Shown in pieces: positions 30,843-54,903 of a stretch of DNA of 64,000 bases. The notes beneath the pieces are model-generated. The model had not been told where the DNA came from. It saw only the letters and a program-made list of their open reading frames with translations, and made no database searches. A program made the translations under genes and the position numbers. Within the stretch, counting starts at the first letter, position 1; each line of letters begins with the position of its first letter. Source of the DNA: a virus. The stretch lies in IMG/VR virus record IMGVR_UViG_3300046007_012472, positions 1 to 64,000 of that record, one strand, 5' to 3'.

Positions 30843-33239
30843 ATGGCATTTTTAGAAGGTTTAACTTTAGCAGAAGTAAATAAAGCAATACTTATTGAAA
30901 ATACAAGCTCGACAAGATTCAAACAGTATTTTTTGATTACTTATGATATTACCACTGGACAAATAGAAGCAGAAAAAACATTATCTAATGATTTTCCTCA
31001 GGGGGCTAGTTTAATATTTGCATATTCAGATCCAGGAAAAAAAGTGATAATACTCACTGGTGAAAGAGTAGTCAATGGAATCTTCGAGTCCGAATCAGTT
31101 TCAGCAACATTTGATGTTGGGTTCCAGCCAAATCAATATCTTTCATACACAAAATATCCAGATCAGTCGTCTTCATATTCTGATAATTATGTGATAAGAG
31201 GAACTACATTCTCTTTTGATGTTATTGAAGAAAATTCGGCAACAGAACCAAAAACATATATTTGGAATTATGGAGAAGGAATAACATTTTCAGGAAGAAC
31301 TGCAAATACTCAAATAATTAGATTTGACAGAGTTGGACCGAAAACAGTTGGACTTACCATTTCAAATATTTTTGGAGAAAATCAATCTAGCATAACATTT
31401 TTCCCAATATCCACTCCGATATTTTCAATTTCAGCTAATCCTACATTTGGTGATGTCAGAATAACCAGACAAATAGGTCTGACTGCAAGTATTGTTGGAT
31501 TGAATGGTCATTTATATGGTGATATTAACTTTACTTGGCAAATAGATGGTCAAACATATTCTGGAAATGCAATAAATCATATTTTTGGTTCTACTGGAAC
31601 CAAAGGTGTAACTTTGATTTATGGTAGTAAAATATTGACAGGATTAAGCGGTTCGACATATGGTCAATATGTTGTTCTTCAAGAAGAGTTTCCGTTGTAT
31701 TATGAACCCGATTTGATGGTTGCATTTTATAAAAATGAACCAGAGTATGCCTATTACGCAAACGAAATGAAAAAATATGGCTCAGCGTACAAATATCTAA
31801 GTCCCAGGGCTACTGGTGGGTATGCGACATGCACATACAACGCAACCATCGCCACTTTTGAATATTTTTCTGATGAAGAAAAAGCCATGCCTATAATGAT
31901 AAATGCGGAATATCCTTGGCTGGAGATACTTTACAGAAAAAATAGTTCTGAACTGGATTCCAAATGGATTACCGATCCTACAGTTGTTCAAGAAGCTCAA
32001 AGACAAGGTGTGACATTAACCGGTTTGACTTTGGCTGGGTACAAGGAAATAGCAGTGAGATGTTGGACAGATATTGTTGAGAGAATGCGAAACAGAGGCT
32101 GTCCAAAAATGATTCACTATGCCTCAACTGCCCAAGCATTTTCCGACTATACGGGAGTTCCTGTCGGAATGCTGGAATATGGTCCTTTACCCGGTGTTAC
32201 TGAAACTCATTATTGGTATCAAGCCAATTCGGTATACAATCCAACAATGAGAGAAAACTTCAATACCAAGATAAATGAAAATTCATATGGTGCTATGGCA
32301 AGAGCACAATCAAATGCAGATGCACATGGAGCGGCTGCTTATTGTTTTGTTCCTAATTCAGCAAGAGGAATTTGTGGTATTTCTTCTTGGTCTTCAACGG
32401 ACATAGTGTTGAGAGGTTACAGTGGTGGAACCAGCTTTACTAATGCTACAGATTTTACCCAAGCTGTATTGGAAGACGCAGTAAAGGTGACATCAGCTAA
32501 GATGTGGCTTGAATATTACAGAGCATGTAATGAAAGTGTTTCTTTAGGTTTTATGGCTAGAAGAGATATGCCACAAAAAATAGCACCTATTGTAATATAC
32601 AGTATAGAATCTATTTTCTTGTTTGCAAATCCCGGTGGGGGATGGAGAAGTCGTTATAAATGGCATGGATCTCAGAACAAAGATCCAGAAAAAACAGCTG
32701 AAAATGAAATTGCTGCAATATTCAGAACTAACAGTAGAATAGATTATACAACTTACGATGAAATAAAATTACCGGATGAGATATGGATATGGGACGCAAG
32801 AAGATATTATAATTTAAATATACCATCACAATTCTTTGATAACCCAAGTGTTGTGACCAAAGACAAAGTGGAATGCTGGATGATGAGAAATGCACTCGAA
32901 CGAGAATTTTTTGGAAGACCGCAATTGAGTTCAGGAAATACTTTATGGTATACCGCAAGCACTGGGGACAACATTACATATTACAGAGATAATTCTTTGT
33001 CCAATTATTTCTGGAACAATATATCTAGTGTATGGTGGGGGTTTAGTGGGGGAACATTCACGAATATGTTGCCCTCACCTTGTAAACTAGATCAAACTTC
33101 ATCTCTGGCACCTTGGTTGAATTTTAATCAAACAATTTTCAGAAATGATGTATTCAAAGCAATAAACCATAAGTTGAGTACAGATTCATTGAATTATATC
33201 ATAAAGGCTAGGGAAAAGCTAAACGAAATATTCCGGTAA
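30843..33239 (+). CDS. structural protein with PKD/Ig-like domains
   Basis: YIWNYGEG...VGLTISNIFG and FTWQIDG...HIF...G.KGVTL PKD-like patterns. Confidence 0.7.
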   Translation: MAFLEGLTLAEVNKAILIENTSSTRFKQYFLITYDITTGQIEAEKTLSNDFPQGASLIFAYSDPGKKVIILTGERVVNGIFESESVSATFDVGFQPNQYLSYTKYPDQSSSYSDNYVIRGTTFSFDVIEENSATEPKTYIWNYGEGITFSGRTANTQIIRFDRVGPKTVGLTISNIFGENQSSITFFPISTPIFSISANPTFGDVRITRQIGLTASIVGLNGHLYGDINFTWQIDGQTYSGNAINHIFGSTGTKGVTLIYGSKILTGLSGSTYGQYVVLQEEFPLYYEPDLMVAFYKNEPEYAYYANEMKKYGSAYKYLSPRATGGYATCTYNATIATFEYFSDEEKAMPIMINAEYPWLEILYRKNSSELDSKWITDPTVVQEAQRQGVTLTGLTLAGYKEIAVRCWTDIVERMRNRGCPKMIHYASTAQAFSDYTGVPVGMLEYGPLPGVTETHYWYQANSVYNPTMRENFNTKINENSYGAMARAQSNADAHGAAAYCFVPNSARGICGISSWSSTDIVLRGYSGGTSFTNATDFTQAVLEDAVKVTSAKMWLEYYRACNESVSLGFMARRDMPQKIAPIVIYSIESIFLFANPGGGWRSRYKWHGSQNKDPEKTAENEIAAIFRTNSRIDYTTYDEIKLPDEIWIWDARRYYNLNIPSQFFDNPSVVTKDKVECWMMRNALEREFFGRPQLSSGNTLWYTASTGDNITYYRDNSLSNYFWNNISSVWWGFSGGTFTNMLPSPCKLDQTSSLAPWLNFNQTIFRNDVFKAINHKLSTDSLNYIIKAREKLNEIFR

Positions 33240-40545: not shown

Positions 40546-41505
40546 TTAGTTTTTTAGGTACACTTCTTTGAATTTTTCCATCACTTTACTTGGCTCGTAG
40601 TCTCTGTATGCATTCCAATCTTTTCCATTTATGTCGGCGTGAGATATATTGGAAAGTATATTTGAAATATCTTCTTTGGTATTGTAATAAATGCCTTTTT
40701 CTTGGAGTATGTCGATATGGCTTCTTTCTCTGGAACCGAACCAAGTTATAACTGGTTTATTTCTTATTGAAAACTCACCACAAGCCATCCCAAAAGATTC
40801 TCCTACAGTCCTTGCGTGCAGCATTGCATCGCATGTGTTTATGAACTTTACCTTGTAATTGGCATCTGTGGAGCCGGGAAGGAATATCACTCTATCATGA
40901 TCTATGAATCTTTCTGTGTATTGAAACACAAACCAAATGTCCGATCTTTTGTCTATGATTTCCTTGATCGCTTCTTTTACGAAAGGAATATCGAATGTCT
41001 CAAAACCCCCATTCCTACCGAACACAAAAGCATCAACAGGTATATTCAATTCTTTTCTTAGATTTTCTTCCCCTGCTGGAAGGTGAACTATGTAAGGAAC
41101 ATAAGGTATTTTGTGATCAACCAAAGAAGAGAGCCAACGAGAACCTGTAGCAAATACATCTCCATGGACATCATTCATGGAACAGATCGCAATAGCGTTT
41201 ACAAGATTTTTGCAAACCGTTGATATTACACCATCCGGTCTTCCACCCTTTTCCATGAAAAAATAATCACAAGCATTGTCTAGAAGGATATTGTCTATTT
41301 GAGAGACATGATCATAATGAAACACATTTCCATTGAAAGTGTTTTTAAACTTTTCGATCACTGTTTCATTGTTTGCACTATGTCTGGAATTGTATAATAT
41401 TATTGGCTCAATTTGCAATAATTCTCTTGCCCAATATGCCCAATTATAAATGGCTACTGTAGTACCGAATAAAGACAAAGCATTATCATGAAATGCAATT
41501 TTCAT
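40546..41505 (-). CDS. GT-B fold glycosyltransferase
   Basis: GTTVA.Y, LRKELNIP, DAMLHAR..GESFG...GEF. Confidence 0.75.
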   Translation of the reverse strand: MKIAFHDNALSLFGTTVAIYNWAYWARELLQIEPIILYNSRHSANNETVIEKFKNTFNGNVFHYDHVSQIDNILLDNACDYFFMEKGGRPDGVISTVCKNLVNAIAICSMNDVHGDVFATGSRWLSSLVDHKIPYVPYIVHLPAGEENLRKELNIPVDAFVFGRNGGFETFDIPFVKEAIKEIIDKRSDIWFVFQYTERFIDHDRVIFLPGSTDANYKVKFINTCDAMLHARTVGESFGMACGEFSIRNKPVITWFGSRERSHIDILQEKGIYYNTKEDISNILSNISHADINGKDWNAYRDYEPSKVMEKFKEVYLKN

Positions 41506-42142
41506 TATATTTTTCCAATTTTATGAACAATAAATCTTGCTGAATTAGTGTATTATTGGGAGTGATTTGATTTTCTATTACGCAATCTACAACAAATCCA
41601 TTTTTGTCCATAAATTCGACTACATCTCTTTGTGAAGGACATCCTTCATTGTAATTTGAAATATCTGTTTCTGCCAACACTAGTTTTGCATTAGATAAGG
41701 TTTTTGGACAACTTTTTAAAATGTCCAATTCACTTCCTTGTGTGTCTAATTTTATAAAATCAAACAAAAAATTTGCAAAAGAAGATTTTTCTAAAATAGA
41801 ATCTAGTGTATCGGTTTGTATTTCTTGAACAAGCAAATTATCTCCCTCATAGCAGTGTGTATTTTCTTTATATAAAGAATGTCCTGTGCCCGTAGAGTCA
41901 TTCTTCATTCTATAAAATTTTTTAATACTTTTGGAATCTGATGGACAAGAAATAATATAATTTAATCCGAGCTGTCTTAAATATGGTTCACAATCGGTGT
42001 TTGGTTCAATGCAAAGGACAAACATTTCAGGAAAAATAGACTTTATTTCTGTTGAAAATTGTCCAATATTTGCACCAATATCTAAGACTGTTTTTACATT
42101 GTGTTTTGCTATTTGTTGATATAGTTTTATTGTATTTTTCAT
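41486..42142 (-). CDS. FkbM-family methyltransferase
   Basis: LDIGANIG, IKLDTQGSELDIL. Confidence 0.9.
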   Translation of the reverse strand: MKNTIKLYQQIAKHNVKTVLDIGANIGQFSTEIKSIFPEMFVLCIEPNTDCEPYLRQLGLNYIISCPSDSKSIKKFYRMKNDSTGTGHSLYKENTHCYEGDNLLVQEIQTDTLDSILEKSSFANFLFDFIKLDTQGSELDILKSCPKTLSNAKLVLAETDISNYNEGCPSQRDVVEFMDKNGFVVDCVIENQITPNNTLIQQDLLFIKLEKYNENCIS

Positions 42143-42153
42143 TTTTCTCCCTA

Positions 42154-42954
42154 TTATATGGCAAATCCAAGCCAGTTTGTGTTGTTTTTTGTAAAACCAA
42201 GACCAGTTCTTATAATTCCAAAATGATAATTAAATCTTTCTATGTTAAGTTTATAATCATCTGCAAATTTTTTGTGATTTGTTTCTATGTGCCAATGTCC
42301 TATTCTCATGTAGTTTTCTTTTAACCATTCATAATATTGGCAGCATATATCTTTAATAGAATTCTTGTTACCGATTAAAATTTGATCTGTGAGACCCCCA
42401 TGGTCACAATTTTCAAACCAAGGAATCATCACTTTCTCATCAGATTCTTTTACCTTGGATTTGAGATATTCTATGGGAAGAGGATCTGGAGTTTCGTGGT
42501 CTTGATACCAATTCCCGTAAGGATTTTCTGGAAATTTTCCCAAAAAAGTATCTACTCTAGTTTTAATCACTATATCATAATTTATTTCGGTTTTGTCTGC
42601 GTATTCTCTAAAAAGTTCATACACTCTTTTTGTTCCATGAGCTATGGAAAAATTTGCTCCGATATAATTATTTTGCTTTGTTATTTCTCCAACTGGACTA
42701 GAATCATAATCCTGAACATCATAAGAAACCACATTCATGTTTTCAATTAATTTTTCTATTTTATAAACATCAGATGTGAGTATTTTAACTTTATTTATAT
42801 TTTCCCACGCTGTTTTATTTTCTCCATTCCATGTATGACAAAACACATCAGTAATATTTGAATCGTAAAATTCTGGATGTTTTCGTTTCCAGTCTTTTAT
42901 TGCCATATCCAAAGAACGCAGATGTCCAGAAAATAAAAGTGCTATTTTTCCCAT
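42154..42954 (-). CDS. putative glycosyltransferase
   Basis: KIALLFSGHLR, DVFCHTW, YDIVIKTRVD. Confidence 0.6.
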   Translation of the reverse strand: MGKIALLFSGHLRSLDMAIKDWKRKHPEFYDSNITDVFCHTWNGENKTAWENINKVKILTSDVYKIEKLIENMNVVSYDVQDYDSSPVGEITKQNNYIGANFSIAHGTKRVYELFREYADKTEINYDIVIKTRVDTFLGKFPENPYGNWYQDHETPDPLPIEYLKSKVKESDEKVMIPWFENCDHGGLTDQILIGNKNSIKDICCQYYEWLKENYMRIGHWHIETNHKKFADDYKLNIERFNYHFGIIRTGLGFTKNNTNWLGFAI

Positions 42955-43709
42955 TATAAATTCCTAAAAATTTCTATATCATTTCTTACAAATGAATGGT
43001 GCGATGCTCCATATTTATCTGGAGCAAACGGATGATTCATGTCAAAATACATCATATGATCAATTAAGTCTAAATTTTTTATATTTGCTCCAAAAACAGA
43101 ATGTCCATCTATATTACCACAAATATTGATTAGTTTACTTATGTTCAAAATAATAGAAGAATGTTTTTCGATATTAGACCCTGAGCCTATAGTAAAAACA
43201 GGATTTTGAACTCTGAATCCATTTGACATGTATGTGCTTTTATTAAAATCTGATTGATATATTTTTGTATTATCCAATACAGAAAAATCTATTTTGACAT
43301 TAAGTGCCACATCAAATCGTGTAGATATAACCCAATCATATTCTATTTTATTTTCGAATTCATATTCTTTTCTTTTTAAATCCGAAAAATATAAACTATG
43401 ATAATGAGAATAATTTGAATAAACATATTGATCTGGAGTTGATCCATCTTTGAACTTTTCCACTAAATTTTTATTTAAAGTTTCTTCAAAACTAAATGCT
43501 TTTGGGTGATATAAATCAATAATTTTTTGTTTGAAGTCACTCAGAGAGGAAGAATAATCCCATGTATGAAAAAACACATCAACATCGATGTCATTTCTAT
43601 GAATAAGATTTTTATTTTGATATTCTATTGATAAAGGAGAGTATTCTGAAAAAAGACAAAGACCTCTAGCTTGGCCATGTAAACATAATGCAATTCTTTT
43701 TTTACTCAA
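42954..43709 (-). CDS. putative glycosyltransferase (same family as neighbour)
   Basis: IALCLHGQAR, DVFFHTW, YDWVISTRFD. Confidence 0.6.
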   Translation of the reverse strand: MSKKRIALCLHGQARGLCLFSEYSPLSIEYQNKNLIHRNDIDVDVFFHTWDYSSSLSDFKQKIIDLYHPKAFSFEETLNKNLVEKFKDGSTPDQYVYSNYSHYHSLYFSDLKRKEYEFENKIEYDWVISTRFDVALNVKIDFSVLDNTKIYQSDFNKSTYMSNGFRVQNPVFTIGSGSNIEKHSSIILNISKLINICGNIDGHSVFGANIKNLDLIDHMMYFDMNHPFAPDKYGASHHSFVRNDIEIFRNL

Positions 43710-44827
43710 ATTATACTCACATTTTCATTATGAATTTTTATTGATTCTATAATTTCATCTTTATATTGGGCAGTTCTTACTATAACAATAGGAGCTTTTT
43801 CTTGTTTTATACAAGATGGATTATATATCATCAAATTACTCCCATAAAGAAATTTTCCTATTTTATTTTTATCGTTATCTAATACTCCTAATAAATTTTC
43901 TACATTTAATCCATATGCAATCAGCATTTGAGTAAATATATGACCACCGAAGCAATAGACTTTTTTTCCCTTTATCTGAGAATTTATGTTAATTACATCT
44001 TCCACTAAATTTTTTACGAATGTTTCGTATACATTTTTAGCTATTAATTTATCATAAACTAATTCTTTGGGTTCATTTATTTTTTTAAGTTTGTAAAAAC
44101 AATTGTGCCGAGAAAACTCATGGATATCTACAATTTCCAGTCCGGCTATTTTTGACATAAGGTTCATGTAAGCGTGACTGATATAATATGTGTGCTCAAA
44201 ATTTAATGCATTTAAAAAACCATCCTTTAATTGCTGTTCAATATTGGGTACAGAAATAATTATAGCACCGTCATCTGTTAACATGTTTTTTATTTTTAAC
44301 AGTATATCAACTGGATTATAAAAATGTTCTAAAGTATGGGAAAGTATTGCTACATCATATTTTTTGTCTGTTTTAACATTTTCAACATAATCCTTAATTA
44401 TTTTTATTTTTGAATTTGTTTTACCATCATACAACCCAGCAGACAAATCACAAACAGTATATGATATAATTGAAGAATTTTCGCAAACTGCATTTGCTAT
44501 CTTCATATTTGCTCCGCCAATGTCTATAGCATTTTTTGGATTATTAAAAACGATATAATTTGACAACTCTTGATTATGCAATTCCCATGTTTTTCCTATT
44601 GCTGGGTTGTGTGGTTTTTTATAAAGAACTTTTGGATCAATAAGATTACTTAATTGAACACATCCACAATTTGAACATGAGGAAAATTCCATGTTTTCAT
44701 ATAATTGAATTTCATCTTTATCTCTGATTCCCATATAGACAGGAAAATCTTTTATTATATGAAAAAATTCTAAATTTTCTTTGCATAATGCACAATTTGT
44801 CCTTCTTATCATTTTAAATTCCTTCAC
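43706..44827 (-). CDS. NDP-sugar C-methyltransferase-like SAM-dependent methyltransferase
   Basis: N-terminal CxxC...CxxCG zinc motif, SHTLEH, FEH..Y, LDND..K.G..LYG. Confidence 0.8.
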   Translation of the reverse strand: MKEFKMIRRTNCALCKENLEFFHIIKDFPVYMGIRDKDEIQLYENMEFSSCSNCGCVQLSNLIDPKVLYKKPHNPAIGKTWELHNQELSNYIVFNNPKNAIDIGGANMKIANAVCENSSIISYTVCDLSAGLYDGKTNSKIKIIKDYVENVKTDKKYDVAILSHTLEHFYNPVDILLKIKNMLTDDGAIIISVPNIEQQLKDGFLNALNFEHTYYISHAYMNLMSKIAGLEIVDIHEFSRHNCFYKLKKINEPKELVYDKLIAKNVYETFVKNLVEDVININSQIKGKKVYCFGGHIFTQMLIAYGLNVENLLGVLDNDKNKIGKFLYGSNLMIYNPSCIKQEKAPIVIVRTAQYKDEIIESIKIHNENVSII

Positions 44828-45693
44828 ATACTAGAAAAATTATCATACAATTGATTTCCTAACGAATCCATTTGAGCAAAAAATTGCTTACTGAGTGTAA
44901 TATTTTTTTCTGTGGTTTCTGGACAATAGTCCTGATTTGGGGTTTCTGTCGAAACATACAAATTATTCCAATATGTTGGGAACTCTTCCCAAAGATCACC
45001 TTGCCCAATCAAATCCCACACCCGAGTTCCAATCGTTGGAACAGTTTTGTAATAAACCGAATCCTTTAGACCCTTAATAGTTCTCATGCTGCCGGTAATT
45101 ATGGCTTGATGTTTTTTGAATTTTTGGTCAGAAAGGTATTTAAGATGTGAATTTGCATCAATTCCTGCTTCTTCCATTCTACCGGGAATGATGCTTGCAT
45201 AACATACATTATCATAATTTAATGCTTTTATAATTGTTCCGCTGTCTGAAATTCCAGTAACATTCAAATACAAATTCTTAAATTCTCCAAATGGACCTTT
45301 ATTCCAAAAAATAGGTCTATCTGTTTCTCTTAAGATATAACTGAAATGCGGTATTTTCAATGCTATTTTACTTTTACCGGTATCGAATTTTGAAATAAGA
45401 TTTGCCCATTTAATTATATCAGAAGGACTCATAAAAGAATTTGGAACTTGAACATAGATTAACGAATTTCCACCACAGATTTCATCCATGGTATCGCTCA
45501 TGGTCTTTACCAACTTCTCAAGCTCTGCCACTGTATGACAGTTAACTTTGGCTAGGGCGTTTGGATTTGTTGTTATGCCCAAACAAGATTTAGACGATAT
45601 TTTCTTGCCTAACTTGTCCCATATGCGTCTGATTGCTTCGGTATCTGCTGTGTCAAAGAAAAAGGCTGGAAGTGTAGTTTCTGTTGTATTCAT
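44824..45693 (-). CDS. divergent transaldolase/fructose-6-phosphate aldolase family protein
   Basis: FFDTAD, GITTNP, LKIP Schiff-base Lys, NVT, GR, SMR. Confidence 0.8.
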   Translation of the reverse strand: MNTTETTLPAFFFDTADTEAIRRIWDKLGKKISSKSCLGITTNPNALAKVNCHTVAELEKLVKTMSDTMDEICGGNSLIYVQVPNSFMSPSDIIKWANLISKFDTGKSKIALKIPHFSYILRETDRPIFWNKGPFGEFKNLYLNVTGISDSGTIIKALNYDNVCYASIIPGRMEEAGIDANSHLKYLSDQKFKKHQAIITGSMRTIKGLKDSVYYKTVPTIGTRVWDLIGQGDLWEEFPTYWNNLYVSTETPNQDYCPETTEKNITLSKQFFAQMDSLGNQLYDNFSSM

Positions 45694-45695
45694 GT

Positions 45696-46076
45696 TTAAG
45701 GATTCTCCGCCGTTCTGTCTCCTTTTATGAGACGGTCTTTAATTGCTTGTATTGATGTTTTCCAATCGGTATGACGATGAACTGCATCATCGATAAAAAG
45801 ATCTGCGTGTGGTTTACTCCACCAAATTTCATCATATGGAATTTGATGTTTTTCTAACCAATCAAAAAGTATTTTTCCTTGTTTAGCAAGAACTTTTCCT
45901 TGATTTCCCCCACAAGTTCTCATGTGTCTTCCTGTATGAAGAATGATTGTGTGTCCTTCAGATTTTAACCAACGAATAGTTTCTACTGCTTCTGGAAAAG
46001 GATTGACATCGAAATATGTCATGTTTCCTAATTTTCTTTCACATACTGTATTATCAAGATCAAAGGCAAAAATCAT
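45696..46076 (-). CDS. HAD capsule-biosynthesis phosphatase (EcbF/BcbF-like)
   Basis: FDLDNTVC, TGRHMRT..GN.GK, WL....PYDEI...KP..D.FIDD. Confidence 0.85.
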   Translation of the reverse strand: MIFAFDLDNTVCERKLGNMTYFDVNPFPEAVETIRWLKSEGHTIILHTGRHMRTCGGNQGKVLAKQGKILFDWLEKHQIPYDEIWWSKPHADLFIDDAVHRHTDWKTSIQAIKDRLIKGDRTAENP

Positions 46077-46852
46077 TCTTTCCCTTTCATCATAAAAATA
46101 TTAACATCTTCGGGGGTTCCAAGAGGAACTACAGAATTAACCATATGAACATGCACAGGCTGACCTATTTTTGCATGATGTTTAGGTAACATACTCATGT
46201 AATATTCTTCTTTATTTTCTGGTCCTATTGGTGCTAGATTATCCATTATAAAATCTGCATAATTTTTAAATTGATCCACTCTTGAAAAATAGAATGTTCC
46301 AATGAGAGCAGGATAATTTATCCAATTATCGTCCTTTTCCCTCAATTCTATTGCTAGATTATTTTTTATTCTGGCATTACACCATTTATTTGGGAGTTTT
46401 TTGTTCTCGTCGTCAAAACAACAAATTGCCATGGTGCTCAAGTCGGATGGAAGCGAACTAAAAAAAGTATCCATTCCTGAATGATCGTATTTATTGTCAG
46501 AATCTAAAAATAAAATTGGGCTATTCGAAAACTTTATTTTGTCACATGCTATTCTTGCAGTTTCCAAATTTCCCCTTGTCACCTGATCAAATGGTATTAT
46601 TGTTATATTTTCTCCGTATATGGATTTTAAAAATTCTCCAACACCATCTTCTAGATGTTCTTTTAACACAGCAAAGCATAAATTAATGGTTTTGTCTTGC
46701 TCTTTCACATTATGTTTTATAAACGGGCATGATTCTGTTGTCCATTGCAATATTGTTTTACCGTTTACCATTACCATGGGTTTTGGTACACAATATCCCT
46801 TTTCGGTAAAACGATTTCCTTTCCCAGCCATCAATATCATTATGTTTAGCAT
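46073..46852 (-). CDS. sugar-phosphate nucleotidyltransferase
   Basis: MAGKGNRF...GY..PKP, TRG..ET, LGTPED. Confidence 0.85.
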   Translation of the reverse strand: MLNIMILMAGKGNRFTEKGYCVPKPMVMVNGKTILQWTTESCPFIKHNVKEQDKTINLCFAVLKEHLEDGVGEFLKSIYGENITIIPFDQVTRGNLETARIACDKIKFSNSPILFLDSDNKYDHSGMDTFFSSLPSDLSTMAICCFDDENKKLPNKWCNARIKNNLAIELREKDDNWINYPALIGTFYFSRVDQFKNYADFIMDNLAPIGPENKEEYYMSMLPKHHAKIGQPVHVHMVNSVVPLGTPEDVNIFMMKGKE

Positions 46853-47790
46853 AAATTTTTCATAGCCTCATTTAAATTTTTTATTCCAGTCAAATACATT
46901 ATCATTTGACGCTTTTTACAATCATAATGTCTAGCACACATTCCAACGAATATCAATCCTTCAACAAGACGAATCAAATCAATGTTTTTATCACTAAATA
47001 TTTTTTTGTATGCATTAAAAGCATCTTGTTTGTTTTCATTTTCCAACAATTCAATATTATACACTCCTGTTGACTTTTTTTCAACTACAAAACTGTCATT
47101 TATGAATAATTCATATCCACCTTCAACTGAATGTAATAATTTTGCGCAATCATACATGCTGTCACCATATATTCCTTTTGTTCCAAAGGAACCACGCATG
47201 TCTATAAATCTAGAACCTATTTTTGGATGATACAATATATTACTAAAACACATGTCTCCATGAATCATTGTTCTTTTATACAACAGAAGATTTTTTTCTA
47301 TAAGTGCCTGTATTTTATCCCAAAGTTTTTCAAAATTAACATATTCTTTATCATTGATTATTAATTTATCACCAGAAAATAACTCATGGTCGTAATAGGA
47401 TTTTTTTAAGTTTTCGTATTCATTTTTTGTTTTAGTTATGTACATGGAAATTGCGTGGCTTTCTGCATCTTTATTTTCTTGAACATAATTGGACATCAAT
47501 CCAATGGCTTCTTTAATGTTAGAAAAAACAGAAATCCAATCAAATTTTTCATCTGAAAGCATATATTCTCCGAGATTTTTATACGGATAATATTCAATTA
47601 CAAGATGATATTTTTGATTTGCAACATAAGAATCTTTTTTTCTTGGAAAAAGATGTTTTACATTGGAAGGAATCGAGTCGTAATACGCGATTTCATCTAA
47701 TAGCCTATCGGAAGCACTGCTTTTTTCGACTAGACCAAAAGGTAAAATTTGTATTGTGTTGTATGCTCTCGTATTAAATGTTTTTTCCAT
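46846..47790 (-). CDS. APH/choline-kinase-fold sugar kinase (capsule biosynthesis type)
   Basis: TRAYN, HGDMCFSNIL, IDMRG.FG...IYGD..YD.AKL.HS. Confidence 0.85.
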   Translation of the reverse strand: MEKTFNTRAYNTIQILPFGLVEKSSASDRLLDEIAYYDSIPSNVKHLFPRKKDSYVANQKYHLVIEYYPYKNLGEYMLSDEKFDWISVFSNIKEAIGLMSNYVQENKDAESHAISMYITKTKNEYENLKKSYYDHELFSGDKLIINDKEYVNFEKLWDKIQALIEKNLLLYKRTMIHGDMCFSNILYHPKIGSRFIDMRGSFGTKGIYGDSMYDCAKLLHSVEGGYELFINDSFVVEKKSTGVYNIELLENENKQDAFNAYKKIFSDKNIDLIRLVEGLIFVGMCARHYDCKKRQMIMYLTGIKNLNEAMKNLC

Positions 47791-48394
47791 ACTTATGCTC
47801 AATAATTTCATCGATGGAAATCATATTTAATTGAAAACGCCTAGCCAATTCCTCTAGTTGCGGCAATCTTGCCATAGAACCGTCATCGTTCATTACTTCT
47901 ATTATGATTGCTACCGGCTTGACTTGAGCCATCAAACATAATTCAACACTAGATTCTGTATGACCCTGACGCTCCTTCAGAAGCCCTGGTCTAGCACGAA
48001 GAGGAAAAAGGTGTCCGGGCTGTGCAAAATCGCCAGGAACACTCTGTTCACTTATAAATTTTTTAATAGTCACCATTCGATCGTTCACACTTACTCCAGT
48101 GGAAATTCCTTCTGAAGCATCTATGCTATTTGCAAATGGTGTTACAAACTTATCTAATTTGTTGCTTTGCATCATTGGAATAGATAATCGTTCCAATCTG
48201 TCAGCCATGCAAGGCAAGCACATTATTCCGCGTCCCCATTTTGCCATAAAAGCTAATGTTTCCGCAGAGGCCATTTCAGCCGCAAGCATCAAATCACCTT
48301 CGTTTTCTCTGTCATAACTATCAACTATAATTATAGGCTTGCCTGATTTTATATCACCCAAAACATTTTTAATATTGCATTCACTTGTATTCAT
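47774..48394 (-). CDS. ribB: 3,4-dihydroxy-2-butanone 4-phosphate synthase
   Basis: DRENEGDL, TGVS..DR, PGHLFPL, RQGHTE. Confidence 0.93.
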   Translation of the reverse strand: MNTSECNIKNVLGDIKSGKPIIIVDSYDRENEGDLMLAAEMASAETLAFMAKWGRGIMCLPCMADRLERLSIPMMQSNKLDKFVTPFANSIDASEGISTGVSVNDRMVTIKKFISEQSVPGDFAQPGHLFPLRARPGLLKERQGHTESSVELCLMAQVKPVAIIIEVMNDDGSMARLPQLEELARRFQLNMISIDEIIEHKYGKNI

Positions 48395-48431
48395 TTTGTT
48401 TGCTCCAATCTTATTTGTATATATTTTGCTT

Positions 48432-49145
48432 TTATTTGCAGTTTATTGTTTCTTTGTGAGATTCATGGTAATATTCAAACTGTTTCAAATTTCCAACTCT
48501 ATCTTTTGCGTATATGTTCAACAAAGAGCCCAGCACGGGAAGATCTCCCCACCTATTTTTATGTTGCAATTCACTGAAAGCTATTTGCTTCAGGATGGAA
48601 CTTACAGGTGGTTCACGCCAAAATTGAACACTACTTATGCAGACATTGGTGTATGGAAATTTGTGATCATAAAAGAGGCTTGCCGGAACATTTGTTATTG
48701 ATTCTATAAACTGGGGTAGAGTGGCGTTTGTTGCCTCATGACTTTCACGGCAAGGCGCGCTAATCAAAAACACCTTGTCATCTATACAAGAAAATGGATC
48801 GATTTCAATCTTTGATATAAAGCAATCTTCATCAACTCTTAATATAAAATCATATTCTTTCGTATAATTCCAGATGTCATACATGTTGAATTTACACATT
48901 CCTGCGTAACCACCCGTCCATATAGAGCTAACATCAACGAATTGAATCGTCTTGTCTTGGCTATGTTCTAGTATGAAATCTTGATGCTCTTTGCTGATAT
49001 TACCCTCATGAAAAATAATGGATTGGTAATGTTTATTCATTTTTTCATTCAGATGATGATAAATCAAGTTATTCCTCTGAATAAGCATATAATAGTTATT
49101 TACATGGGAATATCCTCTTGTCAAACAAACTATGGCGTTTTTCAT
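48432..49145 (-). CDS. GT15-like mannosyltransferase
   Basis: GY..MC.F, RVDED, RWGD. Confidence 0.7.
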   Translation of the reverse strand: MKNAIVCLTRGYSHVNNYYMLIQRNNLIYHHLNEKMNKHYQSIIFHEGNISKEHQDFILEHSQDKTIQFVDVSSIWTGGYAGMCKFNMYDIWNYTKEYDFILRVDEDCFISKIEIDPFSCIDDKVFLISAPCRESHEATNATLPQFIESITNVPASLFYDHKFPYTNVCISSVQFWREPPVSSILKQIAFSELQHKNRWGDLPVLGSLLNIYAKDRVGNLKQFEYYHESHKETINCK

Positions 49146-49993
49146 AATATTTTCCTCAATTGCTCTTTCAGAAGTTCAAGAGAAGGTTCTTTTCCTTCGA
49201 ACAAATATTCAGATCGTATTTTCTCATAATCCTCATCATTATTGTCCAGTTCTATTATTTTTTCAACAAAAGCATCCATGCTGGGGAAATCGTTTAAGTT
49301 TATAAACGATTTGGTGTTGAAATCGTGATTGCAGTGCTCGTCTGCCCAATATAGGGGAAGGCAACCGGCAACCTTTGCGTGAAGCAATTTTTCTGTGTAA
49401 TATCCAGGATGAGTTCCATTTTCAAAACAAATGTTGAATTTATAATTTGATATGATATCATATTTTATATCTTCGCCATTTGAATGATTGCCGAAAGGTG
49501 CTCCGAAACATTCAATTGGTTTATATTTTGAAAGTTTTTGAAGTATTTCTATTCTATTTCTGATTGGATTGCTGAATACTATTGAACAAAACTTGGTTTT
49601 AGGACGAACTGAAAATCTACTATTTCTGAGTTCACCCTGTGGTATGACAAATTTTGGATTCCCGTAACCAATTTTATCGAACCAATCTATCTGAAGCATC
49701 CACAATGGAAGTCGGATGTTTCTTCCTTCATAATCGGAAAAATCAAAGGTTAGGCTATAATCACATTCTTCGTAATTTGGGCGTTTGTTTTCCCCAGTAT
49801 AGAATATTTTTTTGACCTTTTTCCTGTCGGCAGCGTGGTGCTCAGACCCAAAACAAGAATAGATTAAAATGTCGGTATTGTCATTTGAGAAAGGTACAAT
49901 CTCACAAGCAGGATACATGCTTTTTAATAAATCAGAAAAAAAGTTATTATAAGGGTCAACATCACCCCAAAAATCACAAAATGAAACTTTCAT
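49142..49993 (-). CDS. GT10 fucosyltransferase-like
   Basis: YTGEN.RP, YKFNICFEN...GYYTEK. Confidence 0.85.
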   Translation of the reverse strand: MKVSFCDFWGDVDPYNNFFSDLLKSMYPACEIVPFSNDNTDILIYSCFGSEHHAADRKKVKKIFYTGENKRPNYEECDYSLTFDFSDYEGRNIRLPLWMLQIDWFDKIGYGNPKFVIPQGELRNSRFSVRPKTKFCSIVFSNPIRNRIEILQKLSKYKPIECFGAPFGNHSNGEDIKYDIISNYKFNICFENGTHPGYYTEKLLHAKVAGCLPLYWADEHCNHDFNTKSFINLNDFPSMDAFVEKIIELDNNDEDYEKIRSEYLFEGKEPSLELLKEQLRKIL

Positions 49994-50563
49994 TCAATTC
50001 TCCACAAATGCAACCAATACATCAGTTTTTCCACTAAAACCTTCTTCATACACTATTTTGTAGTTGGGATTAATCTCCATCAGTTTGTTTTCTATTCCTT
50101 TTACATCATAAAAATTTCTAATAGCCCAGTCAGTACGAGCCTTAAAAATTCTAATATCATCGATCATAATCGTATTGTCATTACGGGTTGAAAAATTTTG
50201 AATAATATCAAGTTCGTGCATTAAAGGCGAATGCGTGTTGATATCGGGATGAATATGACTCAAATCCAAATGGGCATCCAACCAAAATGTTATTTTGTCG
50301 GTTATAGATGGTAGAATTTTTTGTAACACATCGGCACTGTGTCCTAAATGTAGCTCGACATTTCCATTTTTTATTTCAGCTTCAAATCGTTCTGAACAAT
50401 TTGTATAATATGGTTGCATTATTTCTATGCTTATTACTTTTTTTGTTTTGCAATCAAGGGCCATTTGTATTCCATCGCCCATCCATGAACCTGTTTCTAA
50501 AAATAAATCGCTTTTGTATTTTTTGTACACAGATTCAAATAATGTAGTTTTTGTTTCAGACAT
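49994..50563 (-). CDS. class I SAM-dependent methyltransferase-like
   Basis: FLETGS..GDG, SIE, FWLDAH, IDD.R. Confidence 0.7.
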   Translation of the reverse strand: MSETKTTLFESVYKKYKSDLFLETGSWMGDGIQMALDCKTKKVISIEIMQPYYTNCSERFEAEIKNGNVELHLGHSADVLQKILPSITDKITFWLDAHLDLSHIHPDINTHSPLMHELDIIQNFSTRNDNTIMIDDIRIFKARTDWAIRNFYDVKGIENKLMEINPNYKIVYEEGFSGKTDVLVAFVEN

Positions 50564-50580
50564 AATTTTTTTCCTTTATT

Positions 50581-51246
50581 TTAACCCATTTCCTTTGGAT
50601 CCCATTTATGATTTGGGTCCTGATTTAGTGACGAAGAAAATTCCAAACTCTGGAACGCGAGAGGCGGTTGAAACCAATAATTGTTGATATCAAACTTCCT
50701 GACAATGTAGTTATAAAAGTGATCTGATGGTAAATTTACATTAGACATTTCTTTTACCGTTTTTTCAGCAAATTGTTGACTTATGCAAAATGCATGAGTA
50801 CACCTAGACCCTCTATTCGTTCTATAAACATTTACCCCGGGTATTTGCGGCTCTTTTAAGTTGAAGCAGCTTCCTACCCAACCTATATCCCAATCGTTTG
50901 GAAGTTGGTTCATATATGCATCAAAATATTGTGGGAAGTTATCACATAAAACAGCATCATCTTCAAGCACAAGAGCAGAAGCATATTTTTTCTCATGCAT
51001 GTCCTGAACAATCCAGGAATGTTTCAGTGCCAAAGATTTTTCCCCTTCGGTCATTTTTGTTTCTGGATGATTTATTTTTGGGTATTTCTGATTGATTTCA
51101 TTTACATCCCATGTGTCTTTGTCGAAATGTTCAACAAAAAAATAATTTGACATTTTGAATCTGTTCAATTGCTCAGATACTGCAGCTTTTCTTTCCGTCA
51201 ATTTTTTATAATGACAGATGTAAATCTTATCTACAGCTATACTCAT
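50581..51246 (-). CDS. GT25-like glycosyltransferase
   Basis: GE.S..LKH, LVLEDD, LP.DWD. Confidence 0.8.
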   Translation of the reverse strand: MSIAVDKIYICHYKKLTERKAAVSEQLNRFKMSNYFFVEHFDKDTWDVNEINQKYPKINHPETKMTEGEKSLALKHSWIVQDMHEKKYASALVLEDDAVLCDNFPQYFDAYMNQLPNDWDIGWVGSCFNLKEPQIPGVNVYRTNRGSRCTHAFCISQQFAEKTVKEMSNVNLPSDHFYNYIVRKFDINNYWFQPPLAFQSLEFSSSLNQDPNHKWDPKEMG

Positions 51247-51932
51247 ATTCTATCTCCAAATTGTTTATTTTCTTCTACTGTCCAATGGGGTTTATCCATA
51301 TACAATTCATTTTTATTTGGATGTTGAAACTGCGCGTAACCTTGATAATCATATCCATGACATCTGACTTTTGTCTGTTCTTTTATGGAATTTATCTTTT
51401 GGTCTGTCGCATAATAAATATCGGTTCCAAAAAACGCATTTATTGCTCTTGTATAAACAACGGGTCCGGTCAATTCTAGAATTGATTTTATTTTATCTTG
51501 TTTGATATTTTCAACACAATAATCCAAGCAAATTTTCAATATCGGATGCTTGGGGGTAAACATCAAGCACCATTGAACAAATTTTCCTTGATTTTTTTCT
51601 CTGCTTATTATAGAGCAACCGTCATTCAATATTAAACTATCTAGATTTGCAAATATTAGAGAATCCACATCGATGTAGATTCCGCCTCGCTCATAAAGAA
51701 TCGAATATCTCCACAAATCAGCTTTGGCTGCTCCTATGGTGAGTTTGTTGAAACAATCAAACACATCTGTTTCACAATTCTCTTCCATGTATTTCAACAT
51801 GTCTTTATCATCAAATAATTGATATTCATAATTTTTGTTGATTTTCAACATATCATCAATCGTGCTCTTTATGGAGACCGGAAGATGTTTAGTCATCCAA
51901 GTTTGATATATTGTTTTGGGTAATTGAATCAT
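51243..51932 (-). CDS. GT32 DXD glycosyltransferase
   Basis: PKTIYQTW, ADLWRY.ILY..GGIYIDVD, TGP. Confidence 0.88.
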   Translation of the reverse strand: MIQLPKTIYQTWMTKHLPVSIKSTIDDMLKINKNYEYQLFDDKDMLKYMEENCETDVFDCFNKLTIGAAKADLWRYSILYERGGIYIDVDSLIFANLDSLILNDGCSIISREKNQGKFVQWCLMFTPKHPILKICLDYCVENIKQDKIKSILELTGPVVYTRAINAFFGTDIYYATDQKINSIKEQTKVRCHGYDYQGYAQFQHPNKNELYMDKPHWTVEENKQFGDRI

Positions 51933-52765
51933 TTTAATCTTTCAACTATTCTATCATAAAACCCATTCATTGTAAAATACTTTTTGTAAATTTGTTGAAT
52001 TTTGTCTTTGATTATTGGCATTTCCGATTCTCGCTCTTTCAATATTGAAACGATATTTTTAATATCATTTTCCGAAATCAGGACGGAAAAGTCAGACCAA
52101 TTCAGTTCGTCGGACCATGGCAAATATAAATCATCTGTGATGATCACGGGAATAGCCCCAAGTTGCATGCTTTCATACAATCTAAAACTGTTTAGACCAT
52201 ATCCTCTGGGACAAAGACAGAATTTGCTATGGGTGGTGACATCAAAGAAAAAAGAAAATTCATCATCATCCACTTTGGGTGTCCAGCCCTTTATTCGCAT
52301 CAGGATGCCCTCCTCGTTCCTGCATGCCTCGAACATCTTGGCACGAATCGGATGCGTCATTGAGCCTACAAACGAAGCCAGAATGGGTCTTTCTTCTTCC
52401 TGATATTCCCTTTCGATCGGTGAGCATACAAGAGGAATTGGGATGATATTGTTTCCTTTTACATTTCCCCCAGCAGAAAAGCATATGGTATCTGGTGGCA
52501 ATCTCTCGTAAGGTGCATCGTCGTGCTGGGATACGGTAAAATATTTTTTGTCTCTGGGAAGATCATCCAGAAATTTTTGGATTCTTGACCTATCGTTGTG
52601 GCAATATAGGGTTGTCCAACTTATAGCAATATACTCTCTTGAAACTGCGGGGGTCTCTTTCGCAAACTTATTATAGAAATAATCTTCTAGATAATCCCCC
52701 TTGTGGTAGGGGGGATAAACCGGATACATTGGATTGGGTCTAAGATCATCTCTTGTGTGAATCAT
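51929..52765 (-). CDS. exostosin (GT47)-like glycosyltransferase
   Basis: SKFCLCPRGYG..SFRLYE....GAIPVI. Confidence 0.85.
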   Translation of the reverse strand: MIHTRDDLRPNPMYPVYPPYHKGDYLEDYFYNKFAKETPAVSREYIAISWTTLYCHNDRSRIQKFLDDLPRDKKYFTVSQHDDAPYERLPPDTICFSAGGNVKGNNIIPIPLVCSPIEREYQEEERPILASFVGSMTHPIRAKMFEACRNEEGILMRIKGWTPKVDDDEFSFFFDVTTHSKFCLCPRGYGLNSFRLYESMQLGAIPVIITDDLYLPWSDELNWSDFSVLISENDIKNIVSILKERESEMPIIKDKIQQIYKKYFTMNGFYDRIVERLK

Positions 52766-53424
52766 ACAAACCAGAGCCCTTCTTGCTTAAACCTGTTTGT
52801 CTTCTCTTCGATTCCCACCATGTGATTGTTGTGGACAATCACTGCTTTATCTTTGTATCCCGCCTTGTAGTAAACATGTCCATTTGGAAAACGCACCTGA
52901 TTCAACAAGGAAATATTTTCTCTGTATTTTGCAGAAAGATTGTTTATCAATATCTGGTCATCTTCTTCCACATTTTGTGAACATTCATTTATCAATTCTT
53001 TGCATTTTTCATGAGAATTGAACACCATGAATCCCGAGCAAATCATAGATCCAGGAAGGTCACATTGGAACAATATCCAATGATCATCGATGATGTACGG
53101 CATCGGATTTTCTTTAAATACTATATCCGTATCCACCCAGCAGAGCGACTTGTGTTGTGAATAGATTTCAGATATCAATTTCCATTTATTTTTGACAATT
53201 TTTCTGAAATTGCTTTGAGCATCAAAAGTCCAATTTTGATACTCTGTCAATTCCATGTCATCATGCAAAAATGCTCCTTTATATGATTTCATGTTCTCAT
53301 ACGCATTTTTGTCCAGACATGCAATGATAAAATCGTCCAAATTTAGTCCGACTTTTTCTGCCGACTTGAGCATGTTCTTGCATATGTCTATGCAACCACT
53401 ATTTAATTGAGTCAGAAATTTCAT
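52762..53424 (-). CDS. nucleotide-diphospho-sugar transferase (GT77-like)
   Basis: DTDIVF..NP, CSGF, DDQ, FPNG, VHNN. Confidence 0.8.
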   Translation of the reverse strand: MKFLTQLNSGCIDICKNMLKSAEKVGLNLDDFIIACLDKNAYENMKSYKGAFLHDDMELTEYQNWTFDAQSNFRKIVKNKWKLISEIYSQHKSLCWVDTDIVFKENPMPYIIDDHWILFQCDLPGSMICSGFMVFNSHEKCKELINECSQNVEEDDQILINNLSAKYRENISLLNQVRFPNGHVYYKAGYKDKAVIVHNNHMVGIEEKTNRFKQEGLWFV

Positions 53425-54269
53425 TTGATGTACTCGTAAATCATTTCATCTGCCATTTTCAAGTTCATGGCAATTTCAAAGTTTTTCTTGATTGCATCCG
53501 TTCTATCCATATAATCCTTTTCTTCAAGATCAAGTATCCAATCAATTTTGGTGGGATCATTTATTGTTATTATCCCATTAGGATCAAATATTTTTGATAT
53601 ATTCGGATCTCCCCAATATAAGGGAATTGTTCCTGTAACAAAACAATCTGTTATTTTTTCCGTGTAATATCCTGGATGATTATCGTTTTCTATTGTAATA
53701 GAAAACCTGTATTCTTGTAAAGCTTCTAATTTTGGTCTATGATGAGTTCCCCTGTCAACTCCTATCACTTTACTATTTGCCACGCCTCCATATAAATCAA
53801 TTTTATCTTTTAAATTTGAAGCAATGCCCCATCTTATTCTGTGGCCTTTTGTAAAATTTTTAGAAGACGATAACATCGATACATTTTTTGATTTCTTATA
53901 AATTTGGCATTCATCTCTATCACCCCAAGGCAAATTGCTTCCTGGAGCTATTTTAATGAATCTAGAATCTTCTTGAGTCAATTCGTCACTACAGGTAAAA
54001 ATTCCTTTTATTTTTTCAAATAATTTTTCCTTGTTATTTTTTATAAACAGTATAACATCAGGCACAACTTGAAATGATTCTACGATCCAACCATACAAAA
54101 TTTTGTCTTCTACAGAAGAATGCAAAGACATAGGAATTGCCCTGTCTGCCAAAATATAAATTGGAGAATCTGGATTTCCTGACCATCTAAAATTTTTAGG
54201 TTTTCTCGTTGAACAAGAAGAGCCATGATTTAACGAAAAAGGAGCACCTATTATTGTTAATTCATCCAT
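53421..54269 (-). CDS. GT10-like glycosyltransferase
   Basis: YRFSITIEN...GYYTEKI.DCF..GTIP.YWG. Confidence 0.8.
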   Translation of the reverse strand: MDELTIIGAPFSLNHGSSCSTRKPKNFRWSGNPDSPIYILADRAIPMSLHSSVEDKILYGWIVESFQVVPDVILFIKNNKEKLFEKIKGIFTCSDELTQEDSRFIKIAPGSNLPWGDRDECQIYKKSKNVSMLSSSKNFTKGHRIRWGIASNLKDKIDLYGGVANSKVIGVDRGTHHRPKLEALQEYRFSITIENDNHPGYYTEKITDCFVTGTIPLYWGDPNISKIFDPNGIITINDPTKIDWILDLEEKDYMDRTDAIKKNFEIAMNLKMADEMIYEYIK

Positions 54270-54903
54270 ATAAAGGAACCCTTGTTAAATTTTCCCATTT
54301 GTTTGCACTATTTTTCTTGTCGGATTGATAAAAAATCGGTTTATTCATCACATAAACATTAAAATTTGTTTGGTTAGTATATAGCCCCATGTCAAACGGC
54401 ATATCTTTTGTCATAAGACAATCATCAATTTGTTCTATTACATGTTTTTTATATTTTTCAGTGAGATATAAAATTGCATGTGTGGATAACATGTGATGAA
54501 GCTGACTTATTTCATCATTTAATTTTTCGTAAACAGGTCTTCCGGCGTGAGAAATTCCCAACCAAACTGCATCTGCGTTATCAGGAATTTCTAGAATAAA
54601 ATTACAATTTTGTTCCATGTCCACATCATCTTCCAAAACAATTAATGGATTTGGATTTAAATTATCAACCAATGCTTTTTTATGGGCCAAAGCACATCCA
54701 AAATAATGTGATCTTTTACCTCCCCATCTGATCTCATTTAACCATTTTTCATCATCCGATGTGATTCGTATTCCTGTTGTCCAGTTTATATTTTCAAACT
54801 TATTTTCTGATAAAAGAGATTCTGTGGATTTTGAATTTATGCTATTTTTTTCCATGCTTATCCACAATGTTTGAATTTTTCTGATATCAATTTTCTGTGC
54901 CAT
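54262..54903 (-). CDS. GT25-like glycosyltransferase
   Basis: GCALAH, VLEDD, P..ADA.WLG.S, THAILY. Confidence 0.7.
   Translation of the reverse strand: MAQKIDIRKIQTLWISMEKNSINSKSTESLLSENKFENINWTTGIRITSDDEKWLNEIRWGGKRSHYFGCALAHKKALVDNLNPNPLIVLEDDVDMEQNCNFILEIPDNADAVWLGISHAGRPVYEKLNDEISQLHHMLSTHAILYLTEKYKKHVIEQIDDCLMTKDMPFDMGLYTNQTNFNVYVMNKPIFYQSDKKNSANKWENLTRVPLYG

Follow-up and report, generated by a model that had tools for sequence, protein, structure and literature searches.

A conserved viral cassette of RibB, a transaldolase-like aldolase, and a sugar-activation trio that probably makes an unusual nucleotide sugar

In the guanosine diphosphate (GDP)-D-glycero-α-D-manno-heptose pathway, the isomerase, anomeric kinase, phosphatase, and nucleotidyltransferase are GmhA, HddA, GmhB, and HddC, respectively; HddA is a GHMP kinase and not of the APH type. 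A phage pathway for uridine diphosphate (UDP)-D-arabinofuranose, described for E. coli phage HY126, RB69, and DLP3, combines an arabinose-5-phosphate isomerase with AfhE, which joins a nucleotidyltransferase to an APH-fold kinase, and with AfhF, a HAD phosphatase (PMC13326640). In that pathway, ribulose-5-phosphate is converted to arabinose-5-phosphate, AfhE produces the 1,5-bisphosphate, AfhF removes the 5-phosphate, and the nucleotidyltransferase domain of AfhE yields UDP-arabinofuranose (PMC13326640). Here, we describe a locus in a 64,000-nucleotide stretch of viral DNA (the window; positions 1 to 64,000 of the 76-kb IMG/VR virus record IMGVR_UViG_3300046007_012472, estimated to be 35% complete) that encodes a kinase, a nucleotidyltransferase, and a HAD phosphatase together with RibB, the synthase of L-3,4-dihydroxy-2-butanone-4-phosphate (DHBP), and a divergent aldolase of the Tal/FSA fold. 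These five enzymes probably form a feeder-plus-activation cassette for an unusual nucleotide sugar that is used by the glycosyltransferases of the surrounding genomic island. Full-text literature searches on RibB in connection with transaldolase, nucleotide sugars, phages, or S-SKS1, a cultured siphophage of Synechococcus, returned no description of such a cassette.

Six overlapping or near-abutting minus-strand open reading frames (ORFs) span positions 43706 to 48394, where an earlier note on this sequence had placed them (Table 1). The junctions, in cassette order, are a 38-nucleotide overlap, a 7-nucleotide overlap, a 4-nucleotide overlap, a 2-nucleotide gap, and a 4-nucleotide overlap. The first of these is the overlap between the RibB and kinase genes to which the earlier note had drawn attention; it shrinks to 17 nucleotides with a kinase start at Met8, the residue from which homology extends. 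The same note had spoken of six tightly coupled genes. All six ORFs do abut or overlap, but the methyltransferase at the end of the series is adjacent to the others in a minority of loci, and the conserved core consists of five genes: those for RibB, the kinase, the nucleotidyltransferase, the HAD phosphatase, and the aldolase.

An alignment-based scan of IMG/VR for the aldolase family recovered 38 loci with aldolases of 33 to 86% identity. RibB and the kinase are present at every one of these loci that has enough flanking sequence, and the gene order RibB-kinase-(nucleotidyltransferase)-HAD-aldolase is nearly always kept. In the reverse scan, which started from RibB, the cassette lies directly downstream in 47 of the 50 viral RibB loci; in the three exceptions, the cassette is 5 kb away, the end of the contig cuts the locus, or a lone RibB of 40% identity is found. 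Viewed as a gene-neighborhood search, the linkage of ribB, the EcbF-like HAD, and the aldolase is conserved in approximately 50 IMG/VR contigs, a count that exceeds the number of independent observations. Further, core enzymes are fused to one another. A nucleotidyltransferase-RibB fusion is found in S-SKS1 (SWZG_00042), in many contigs, and in phrog_3980, of which the N-terminal half corresponds to our nucleotidyltransferase and the C-terminal half to RibB, and a nucleotidyltransferase-HAD fusion occurs among the IMG/VR loci. S-SKS1 carries the cassette together with several of the same transferases, and because S-SKS1 is a different type of virus, the cassette moves between phage lineages. 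A conserved and sometimes fused cassette inside a glycosyltransferase island bears out the view, already taken in the earlier note, that this RibB and its transaldolase-like neighbor are not simple auxiliary metabolic genes.

The cassette is also found in a cellular genome. A scan of approximately 185,000 species genomes with a 10-sequence alignment and two peptide patterns, by which cellular members may be undercounted, gave a sole match in a Planctomycetota metagenome-assembled genome (MAG). This MAG encodes an 817-amino-acid fusion in which RibB stands in front of a joined nucleotidyltransferase and kinase. The contig is a genuine piece of a bacterial chromosome, with genes for a Pup ligase, a coproporphyrinogen oxidase, and a tRNA synthetase beside the glycan cluster. 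Upstream of the Planctomycetota cassette are a B12-radical-SAM protein and two proteins of approximately 740 amino acids with a C-terminal Glyco_trans_1_2 domain, along with an APH-like kinase, a C-terminal transketolase fragment, an S-adenosylmethionine (SAM) methyltransferase, a zinc alcohol dehydrogenase (Zn-ADH), and an RmlD-like reductase.

The viral RibB is intact. It matches PF00926 with an E value of 2.8e-69 (232.9 bits; cut-off, 26.4) and the equivalog-domain model TIGR00506 with 202.2 bits (cut-off, 177.45), and it is 42 to 45% identical to RibBs of solved structure. Its DRENEGD, GIMCL, PGHLFPL, and GHTE motifs align with those of E. coli RibB and other solved RibBs, and 15 RibBs of the module share, without exception, the acidic metal-binding RE.E.D loop and the Cys, PGH, and GHTE motifs. 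In VcRibB, Glu39 and His154 are the metal-binding residues (PMC9305975). With all of its catalytic motifs kept, the phage enzyme is predicted from its sequence to convert ribulose-5-phosphate to DHBP and formate. In its metal-binding and catalytic motifs and its score above the TIGR00506 cut-off, it resembles a canonical riboflavin RibB; it differs in lacking the company of RibA, RibD, RibE, and RibH and in being linked, and often fused, to sugar-activation enzymes. Indeed, a search of all 76 kb of the record gave no RibA, RibD, RibE, or RibH, which extends the statement of the earlier note that RibB is intact and that the window holds no other riboflavin gene. Neither RibA nor RibH, the two proteins searched for, was found in five related phage records (S-SKS1, which is complete; a complete relative of 217.7 kb that has terminal repeats; another that is 90% complete; and two more). 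The earlier note had named ribA, ribD, ribE, and ribH elsewhere in the genome, combined with an absence of conserved linkage, as the outcome that would speak against a role in sugar activation. Instead, the linkage is conserved, and the complete relatives show no ribA or ribH.

Comparisons of the activation enzymes with AfhE and AfhF were made with the RB69 counterparts gp51, gp52, and gp53. The kinase gives only weak RIO/APH matches in Pfam and NCBIfam and matches phrog_21938 at 7e-45; phrog_24015 and phrog_4098 match it through their C-terminal halves. In BLASTP it aligns with RB69 gp52 (E value of 7e-13; 28% identity over 145 residues) across the HGD...N catalytic loop, and tblastn matched 284 phage records, mostly of Straboviridae. 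Residues H184-G185-D186...N191 and D204 are invariant in the kinase family. Similarly, the HAD aligns with RB69 gp51 (E value of 5e-12; 30% identity over 105 residues), has the N-terminal DxD, and matches phrog_1238 at 9e-23. As a single sequence, the nucleotidyltransferase gives weak family matches. Along its full length (profile positions 8 to 248), its family profile matches the nucleoside diphosphate (NDP)-sugar pyrophosphorylase 4evw at 5e-20, and it also matches GlmU, ManC, and RmlA, with IspD-type enzymes matched weakly and in part. The family invariants A9, G10, G12, R14, and K24 include the G-x-G-x-R loop.

The cassette and the UDP-arabinofuranose pathway share the logic of taking an ω-phosphate derived from ribulose-5-phosphate through a 1,ω-bisphosphate and a sugar-1-phosphate to an NDP-sugar, and the cassette kinase and HAD are homologous to gp52 and gp51 of RB69. 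The two systems differ in the feeder, which here is RibB plus a Tal-like aldolase and not an SIS isomerase; no SIS isomerase domain was found in the 76-kb record. They differ as well in the nucleotidyltransferase, which in the cassette is encoded separately or joined to RibB or to the HAD and has no detectable similarity to the corresponding half of the RB69 AfhE counterpart, and in the setting, a glycosyltransferase island rather than a DNA-modification cluster. RibB and the aldolase take the place of arabinose-5-phosphate isomerase, and both routes begin from ribulose-5-phosphate. The GDP-heptose pathway has the same arrangement of a feeder, an anomeric kinase, a terminal phosphatase, and a nucleotidyltransferase; its kinase class (GHMP rather than APH type), feeder, and product are different. 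Relatives of the HAD adjoin genes annotated as phosphoheptose isomerase / carbohydrate kinase in the cyanophages P-SSM2, S-SSM7, and S-CAM3.

A further comparison is offered by the EcbF/BcbF capsule loci. The best curated family of the cassette HAD is TIGR01689 (EcbF-BcbF), but the protein scores far below the cut-off of this model, and no RibB or aldolase is reported in those loci. P. multocida capsules with a fructose side chain need BcbE and BcbG (PMC13552107, which does not say what these two proteins are), in support of the connection that the earlier note had drawn between EcbF/BcbF and fructose side chains. Taken together, the EcbF/BcbF affinity of the HAD and the fructose side chains give a weak hint, by analogy, of ketofuranose activation.

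Some loci depart from this arrangement. In a few, no HAD was detected between the nucleotidyltransferase or kinase and the aldolase, and one of these has a gap of approximately 830 nucleotides that may hold a divergent phosphatase. Relatives of the nucleotidyltransferase with approximately 25 to 29% identity are present in other cyanophages, such as Synechococcus phage B23 (gp352), where the relative forms the C-terminal half of a 457-amino-acid protein (positions 9341 to 10714 in the locus examined) with no RibB nearby. In three other phages, the gene matching the nucleotidyltransferase bears a HAD hydrolase or phosphatase annotation. These loci may be sister cassettes with other feeders.

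The aldolase has no match in Pfam or NCBIfam and does not reach the gathering threshold of PF00923 (TAL_FSA); some of its relatives carry a precomputed PF00923 match, and the protein itself matches phrog_440 "transaldolase" at 4e-13. An AlphaFold model built with a 34-member family alignment (predicted local distance difference test [pLDDT], 93.4) has a TIM-barrel fold, and its top Foldseek matches are transaldolases, sulfofructose transaldolase, and FSA. The family profile matches 3r8r at 8e-15 and short transaldolases at approximately 1e-10 to 1e-14, and hhalign assigns a 92% probability to the match with E. coli FSA. The motifs TTNP, YVQV, LKIP, and SIIPGR are present in the translation. 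All 34 family members share D14, N43, Q82, K113, T146, S167, R172, and R204; at least 90% of them have S202, and either Ile or Leu occupies position 169. The Asp and the Schiff-base Lys named in the earlier note are among the shared residues. According to hhalign, D14, N43, Q82, K113, T146, S167, I169, and R172 are equivalent to D6, N28, Q59, K85, T109, A129, Y131, and R134 of FSA, and K113, T146, S167, I169, R172, S202, and R204 are equivalent to K132, T156, S176, F178, R181, S226, and R228 of TalB.

In place of the catalytic Glu of classical transaldolases (TalB Glu96), the family has the invariant Gln82, and in place of Tyr131, the proton shuttle of FSA, it has Ile169. The earlier note had pointed to Gln at the transaldolase Glu position. 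This residue is present but is not unusual on its own, since FSA has the same state, its Gln59 occupying the TalB Glu96 position; what is unusual is the combination of Gln with Ile at the position of FSA Tyr131 and TalB Phe178. The family invariants and the hhalign equivalences agree with the conclusion of that note that the enzyme is neither a classical Tal nor FSA. Its likeness to both lies in the TIM barrel, the Schiff-base Lys, the Asp, Asn, and Thr residues, the TalB-type Ser176, and the Arg/Ser/Arg phosphate site. The differences are the Gln in place of TalB Glu96, as in FSA, the aliphatic Ile or Leu in place of FSA Tyr131, which resembles TalB Phe178, and membership in a separate small family drawn mostly from viral contigs and metagenomes. 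This family comprises 151 representatives at an E value of ≤0.001 among 1.8 billion proteins and 549 clusters, mostly metagenomic, and has a long extra C-terminal helix with an invariant F-F-x-x-M.

Work on the described enzymes suggests how these residues may be read. Tyr131 of FSA shuttles protons and, together with Gln59 and Thr109, makes up a triad that binds water (PMC13259622). The single change F178Y makes TalB an aldolase, a site of two Arg residues and a Ser binds the acceptor phosphate, and Ser versus Ala at TalB 176/FSA 129 decides between dihydroxyacetone (DHA) and 1-deoxy donors, with Ser favoring the DHA type (PMC3962226). Judged by its residues, the family combines the Gln of FSA, a transaldolase-like hydrophobic residue, a DHA-type Ser, and an intact phosphate site.

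We propose the following route. RibB would convert ribulose-5-phosphate to DHBP, with release of formate. Lys113 of the aldolase would form a Schiff base with a DHA-type C3 unit, which would probably be taken from fructose-6-phosphate or sedoheptulose-7-phosphate because the enzyme has no Tyr to release free DHA. The aldolase would then transfer the unit to DHBP, in effect glyceraldehyde-3-phosphate in methyl-ketone form, to give a branched sugar ω-phosphate. The APH-like kinase would phosphorylate the anomeric hydroxyl, the HAD would take off the terminal phosphate, and the nucleotidyltransferase would make the NDP-sugar, for which the co-conserved DUF7796-like GT-A-fold protein would be the likely transferase. 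The state of Ser167 suggests that DHBP would be the acceptor rather than the Schiff-base partner, in agreement with a 4-C-methyl-hexulose-6-phosphate product. We put forward more tentatively, as a possibility that we consider somewhat doubtful, that the product is a 4-C-methyl-ketohexose 6-phosphate formed from the DHA unit and the ketone of DHBP and activated as an NDP-ketofuranose via the 2,6-bisphosphate and then the 2-phosphate. Such a product fits the invariant Ser167 expected for a DHA-type donor, the transaldolase-like hydrophobic residue at position 169, and a phosphate site at the distance appropriate for fructose-6-phosphate.

Several observations weigh against the sugar-activation cassette and this route. 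Ketone acceptors are unusual for Tal-family enzymes, and the aldolase has neither of the known acid/base residues, the Tal Glu and FSA Tyr131, so its reaction may not be aldol transfer. Neither the single kinase sequence nor its profile significantly matches a solved structure. Compared with RB69 gp53, the nucleotidyltransferase half of the RB69 AfhE counterpart, the cassette nucleotidyltransferase gives an E value of 0.026 with only the Gly-rich loop aligned, and the HAD reaches 66.4 bits against the 162-bit cut-off of TIGR01689. Many of the related contigs are near-duplicates of one another. The same five genes could also carry other chemistry, with DHBP as the Schiff-base partner (as a donor or after isomerization or epimerization) or with the aldolase acting first and the RibB homologue then working on a sugar phosphate other than ribulose-5-phosphate, and the product would be deoxy or differently branched. 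A noncanonical reaction is plausible in a family without the Tal Glu and the FSA Tyr, and the genes, with RibB at the head and the aldolase at the end, need not lie in the order in which their enzymes act. However, the invariant Ser167, in the state of TalB Ser176, favors C1-hydroxyl donors over 1-deoxy donors such as DHBP, and a RibB that scores above its equivalog cut-off with every catalytic motif kept argues for the ordinary reaction on ribulose-5-phosphate. We consider these variants unlikely.

Three explanations would assign the cassette, or part of it, a different purpose. The homology of the kinase and HAD to DNA-arabinosylation enzymes raises the thought that the activated sugar hypermodifies phage DNA, as arabinose does in RB69-like phages, instead of entering a protein- or lipid-linked glycan. 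We judge this improbable: the window has a single thymidylate-synthase-like gene, which encodes an ordinary ThyX, no homologue of a 5-hydroxy- or 5-hydroxymethyl-pyrimidine synthase was seen in the approximately 35% of the genome available, the cassette sits amid more than 10 transferases of the GT10, GT25, GT32, GT47, and GT-A types plus sugar methyltransferases, and it also occurs in a bacterial chromosomal cluster of the polysaccharide type. The nucleotidyltransferase-RibB fusion, which suggests that the nucleotidyltransferase acts close to the RibB product, would suit direct activation of DHBP or its reduced form as a C4 polyol or ketol phosphate (compare cytidine diphosphate [CDP]-glycerol and CDP-ribitol), giving a nonsugar substituent and leaving the aldolase to serve some other purpose. 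Direct activation would dispense with the kinase and the phosphatase, two strictly conserved enzymes with homology to the RB69 AfhE and AfhF counterparts; moreover, the core contains no reductase, and the nucleotidyltransferase profile matches sugar-1-phosphate nucleotidyltransferases along its full length while its IspD-type matches are weak and partial. The nucleotidyltransferase is clearly of the sugar-1-phosphate type, and a CDP-polyol product is therefore disfavored; we hold direct activation to be very improbable. T4-like cyanophages often carry an auxiliary transaldolase gene, talC, and this, together with the intact catalytic motifs of RibB, would be in keeping with ordinary auxiliary metabolic genes that boost the pentose-phosphate pathway and the riboflavin supply of the host and simply adjoin a sugar-activation trio. 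The linkage and the fusions largely refute that explanation, which we regard as the least probable of all: co-occurrence and order hold strictly even where the viral aldolases share only 33 to 40% identity, RibB is fused to the nucleotidyltransferase and to the kinase, complete carriers have no RibH or RibA, and the aldolase belongs to a small separate family below the Pfam TAL_FSA threshold.

If the five genes do form a feeder-plus-activation cassette as proposed, RibB would have its first known function apart from flavin synthesis; DHBP is so far known only as a riboflavin precursor. The aldolase would represent a new catalytic type in the transaldolase/FSA family, in which Gln and Ile take the positions of Glu or Tyr, and, should the product be the 4-C-methyl sugar, the cassette would provide a SAM-independent route to a C-methyl-branched sugar. 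An undescribed activated sugar would then be made by many uncultured aquatic phages, the cultured cyanophage S-SKS1, and at least one bacterium, and it could matter for phage-host recognition or for shielding of the virion surface. In metagenome surveys, the findings call for caution before viral ribB and tal are scored as simple auxiliary metabolic genes. With five small soluble enzymes and commercial substrates, the pathway is directly testable.

The genes next to the core include further candidates for use or modification of the sugar. Enzymes of the TylC3 type combine a Zn-binding N-domain, a SAM-methyltransferase domain, and a C-terminal Methyltransf_14 domain. The methyltransferase passes the cut-offs of Methyltransf_23 and Methyltransf_14 and scores 16.5 bits against the 31.3-bit cut-off of Methyltransf_13; its best PDB match is the mycarose 3-C-methyltransferase 4rv9 (1.6e-6). 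It adjoins the module only in S-SKS1-like loci and in close relatives of the studied phage, and we treat it as accessory because it is adjacent in this subset of loci only. A homologue of the 251-amino-acid DUF7796-like protein adjoins the module in most loci. The model of this protein (pLDDT, 84) gives Foldseek matches to the glycosyltransferases GT6, GT31, and LARGE1, and has a GT-A fold; the protein is the likely transferase of the activated sugar. It aligns with its paralogue in the next gene, with Y124, D125, R131, and D133 (numbering of the 251-amino-acid protein) invariant in a YD...R.D motif. A 319-amino-acid protein, frequent beside the module, is 64% identical to the homologue encoded by a neighboring gene in S-SKS1; Glycos_transf_1 appears on its ESM Atlas feature neighbors, a lead by which it may be a GT-B transferase. 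The 4-epimerase-like short-chain dehydrogenase/reductase (SDR), another frequent neighbor, shares 46% identity with the epimerase encoded next to the cassette in S-SKS1.

Table 1. Features of the cassette and its surroundings in the 64,000-nucleotide window (aa, amino acids)
Feature	Coordinates	Strand	Basis
RibB (DHBP synthase)	47774..48394	-	PF00926, TIGR00506
APH-type protein-kinase-like sugar kinase, 321 aa	46846..47811	-	phrog_21938, RB69 gp52
Sugar-1-phosphate nucleotidyltransferase, 259 aa	46073..46852	-	Family profile versus 4evw
Small HAD phosphatase, EcbF/BcbF / AfhF type, 126 aa	45696..46076	-	TIGR01689 best family, phrog_1238, RB69 gp51
Divergent Tal/FSA-fold class I aldolase with Gln82 and Ile169, 289 aa	44824..45693	-	Model, Foldseek, profile
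Putative TylC3-type sugar C-methyltransferase, 373 aa, accessory	43706..44827	-	Methyltransf_23/_14/_13
DUF7796-like GT-A-fold protein, 251 aa, candidate dedicated glycosyltransferase	42954..43709	-	Weak PF25072, model
Second DUF7796-like paralogue, 266 aa	42154..42954	-	phrog_13607
FkbM-family methyltransferase, 218 aa	41486..42142	-	PF05050 1.1e-11
Conserved 319-aa protein, possibly GT-B glycosyltransferase	40546..41505	-	S-SKS1 homologue
UDP-hexose 4-epimerase-like SDR, 305 aa	38199..39116	-	PF01370 1e-57; PDB 4zrm 5e-52
Remaining glycan island, including seven glycosyltransferase-matching genes	48432..54903	-	Pfam

The cassette lies in a 14-kb low-GC island (positions 40546 to 54903; 28 to 35% GC versus 38 to 45% in the flanks) between the uvsX and gp41 helicase genes. 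The seven glycosyltransferase-matching genes at positions 48432 to 54903 comprise two GT10 fucosyltransferase-like genes, two GT25 proteins (one clear and one subthreshold), a GT32-like protein, a GT47 protein, and a PF03407 protein. This transferase set is unusually broad and draws in part on families best known from eukaryotes (GT10, GT25, GT32-like, GT47/exostosin, and PF03407). The same stretch encodes a 189-amino-acid ORF with subthreshold matches only and a 237-amino-acid protein with no family match. The latter (positions 48432 to 49145, minus strand) lies between RibB and a fucosyltransferase, has no match in Pfam, PHROG, or NCBIfam, contains a D-E-D motif, and may be a GT-A-like transferase. 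Promoters and terminators predicted in the island were no more numerous than in shuffled sequence, and blastn of the region against GenBank phages returned no match.

The host of the island is a distant T4-like myovirus whose gp43 polymerase is approximately 50% identical to those of Kyanoviridae; UvsX, the gp41 helicase, a primase, ThyX, a ribonucleotide reductase, and a baseplate wedge protein are also encoded. Four very large ORFs, presumably all for virion proteins, lie at positions 22256 to 27490 (1744 amino acids), 9668 to 12844 (1058 amino acids), 5776 to 8205 (809 amino acids), and 30810 to 33239 (809 amino acids); the first three have no Pfam match, and the fourth has no PHROG match. 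The ORF at positions 60583 to 62490 (minus strand) matches tail-fiber families, and the ORF at positions 62881 to 63981 (minus strand) contains a collagen repeat. A Laminin_G_3-like protein (subthreshold match) is encoded at positions 59783 to 60583, among these tail-fiber-like and collagen-repeat ORFs.

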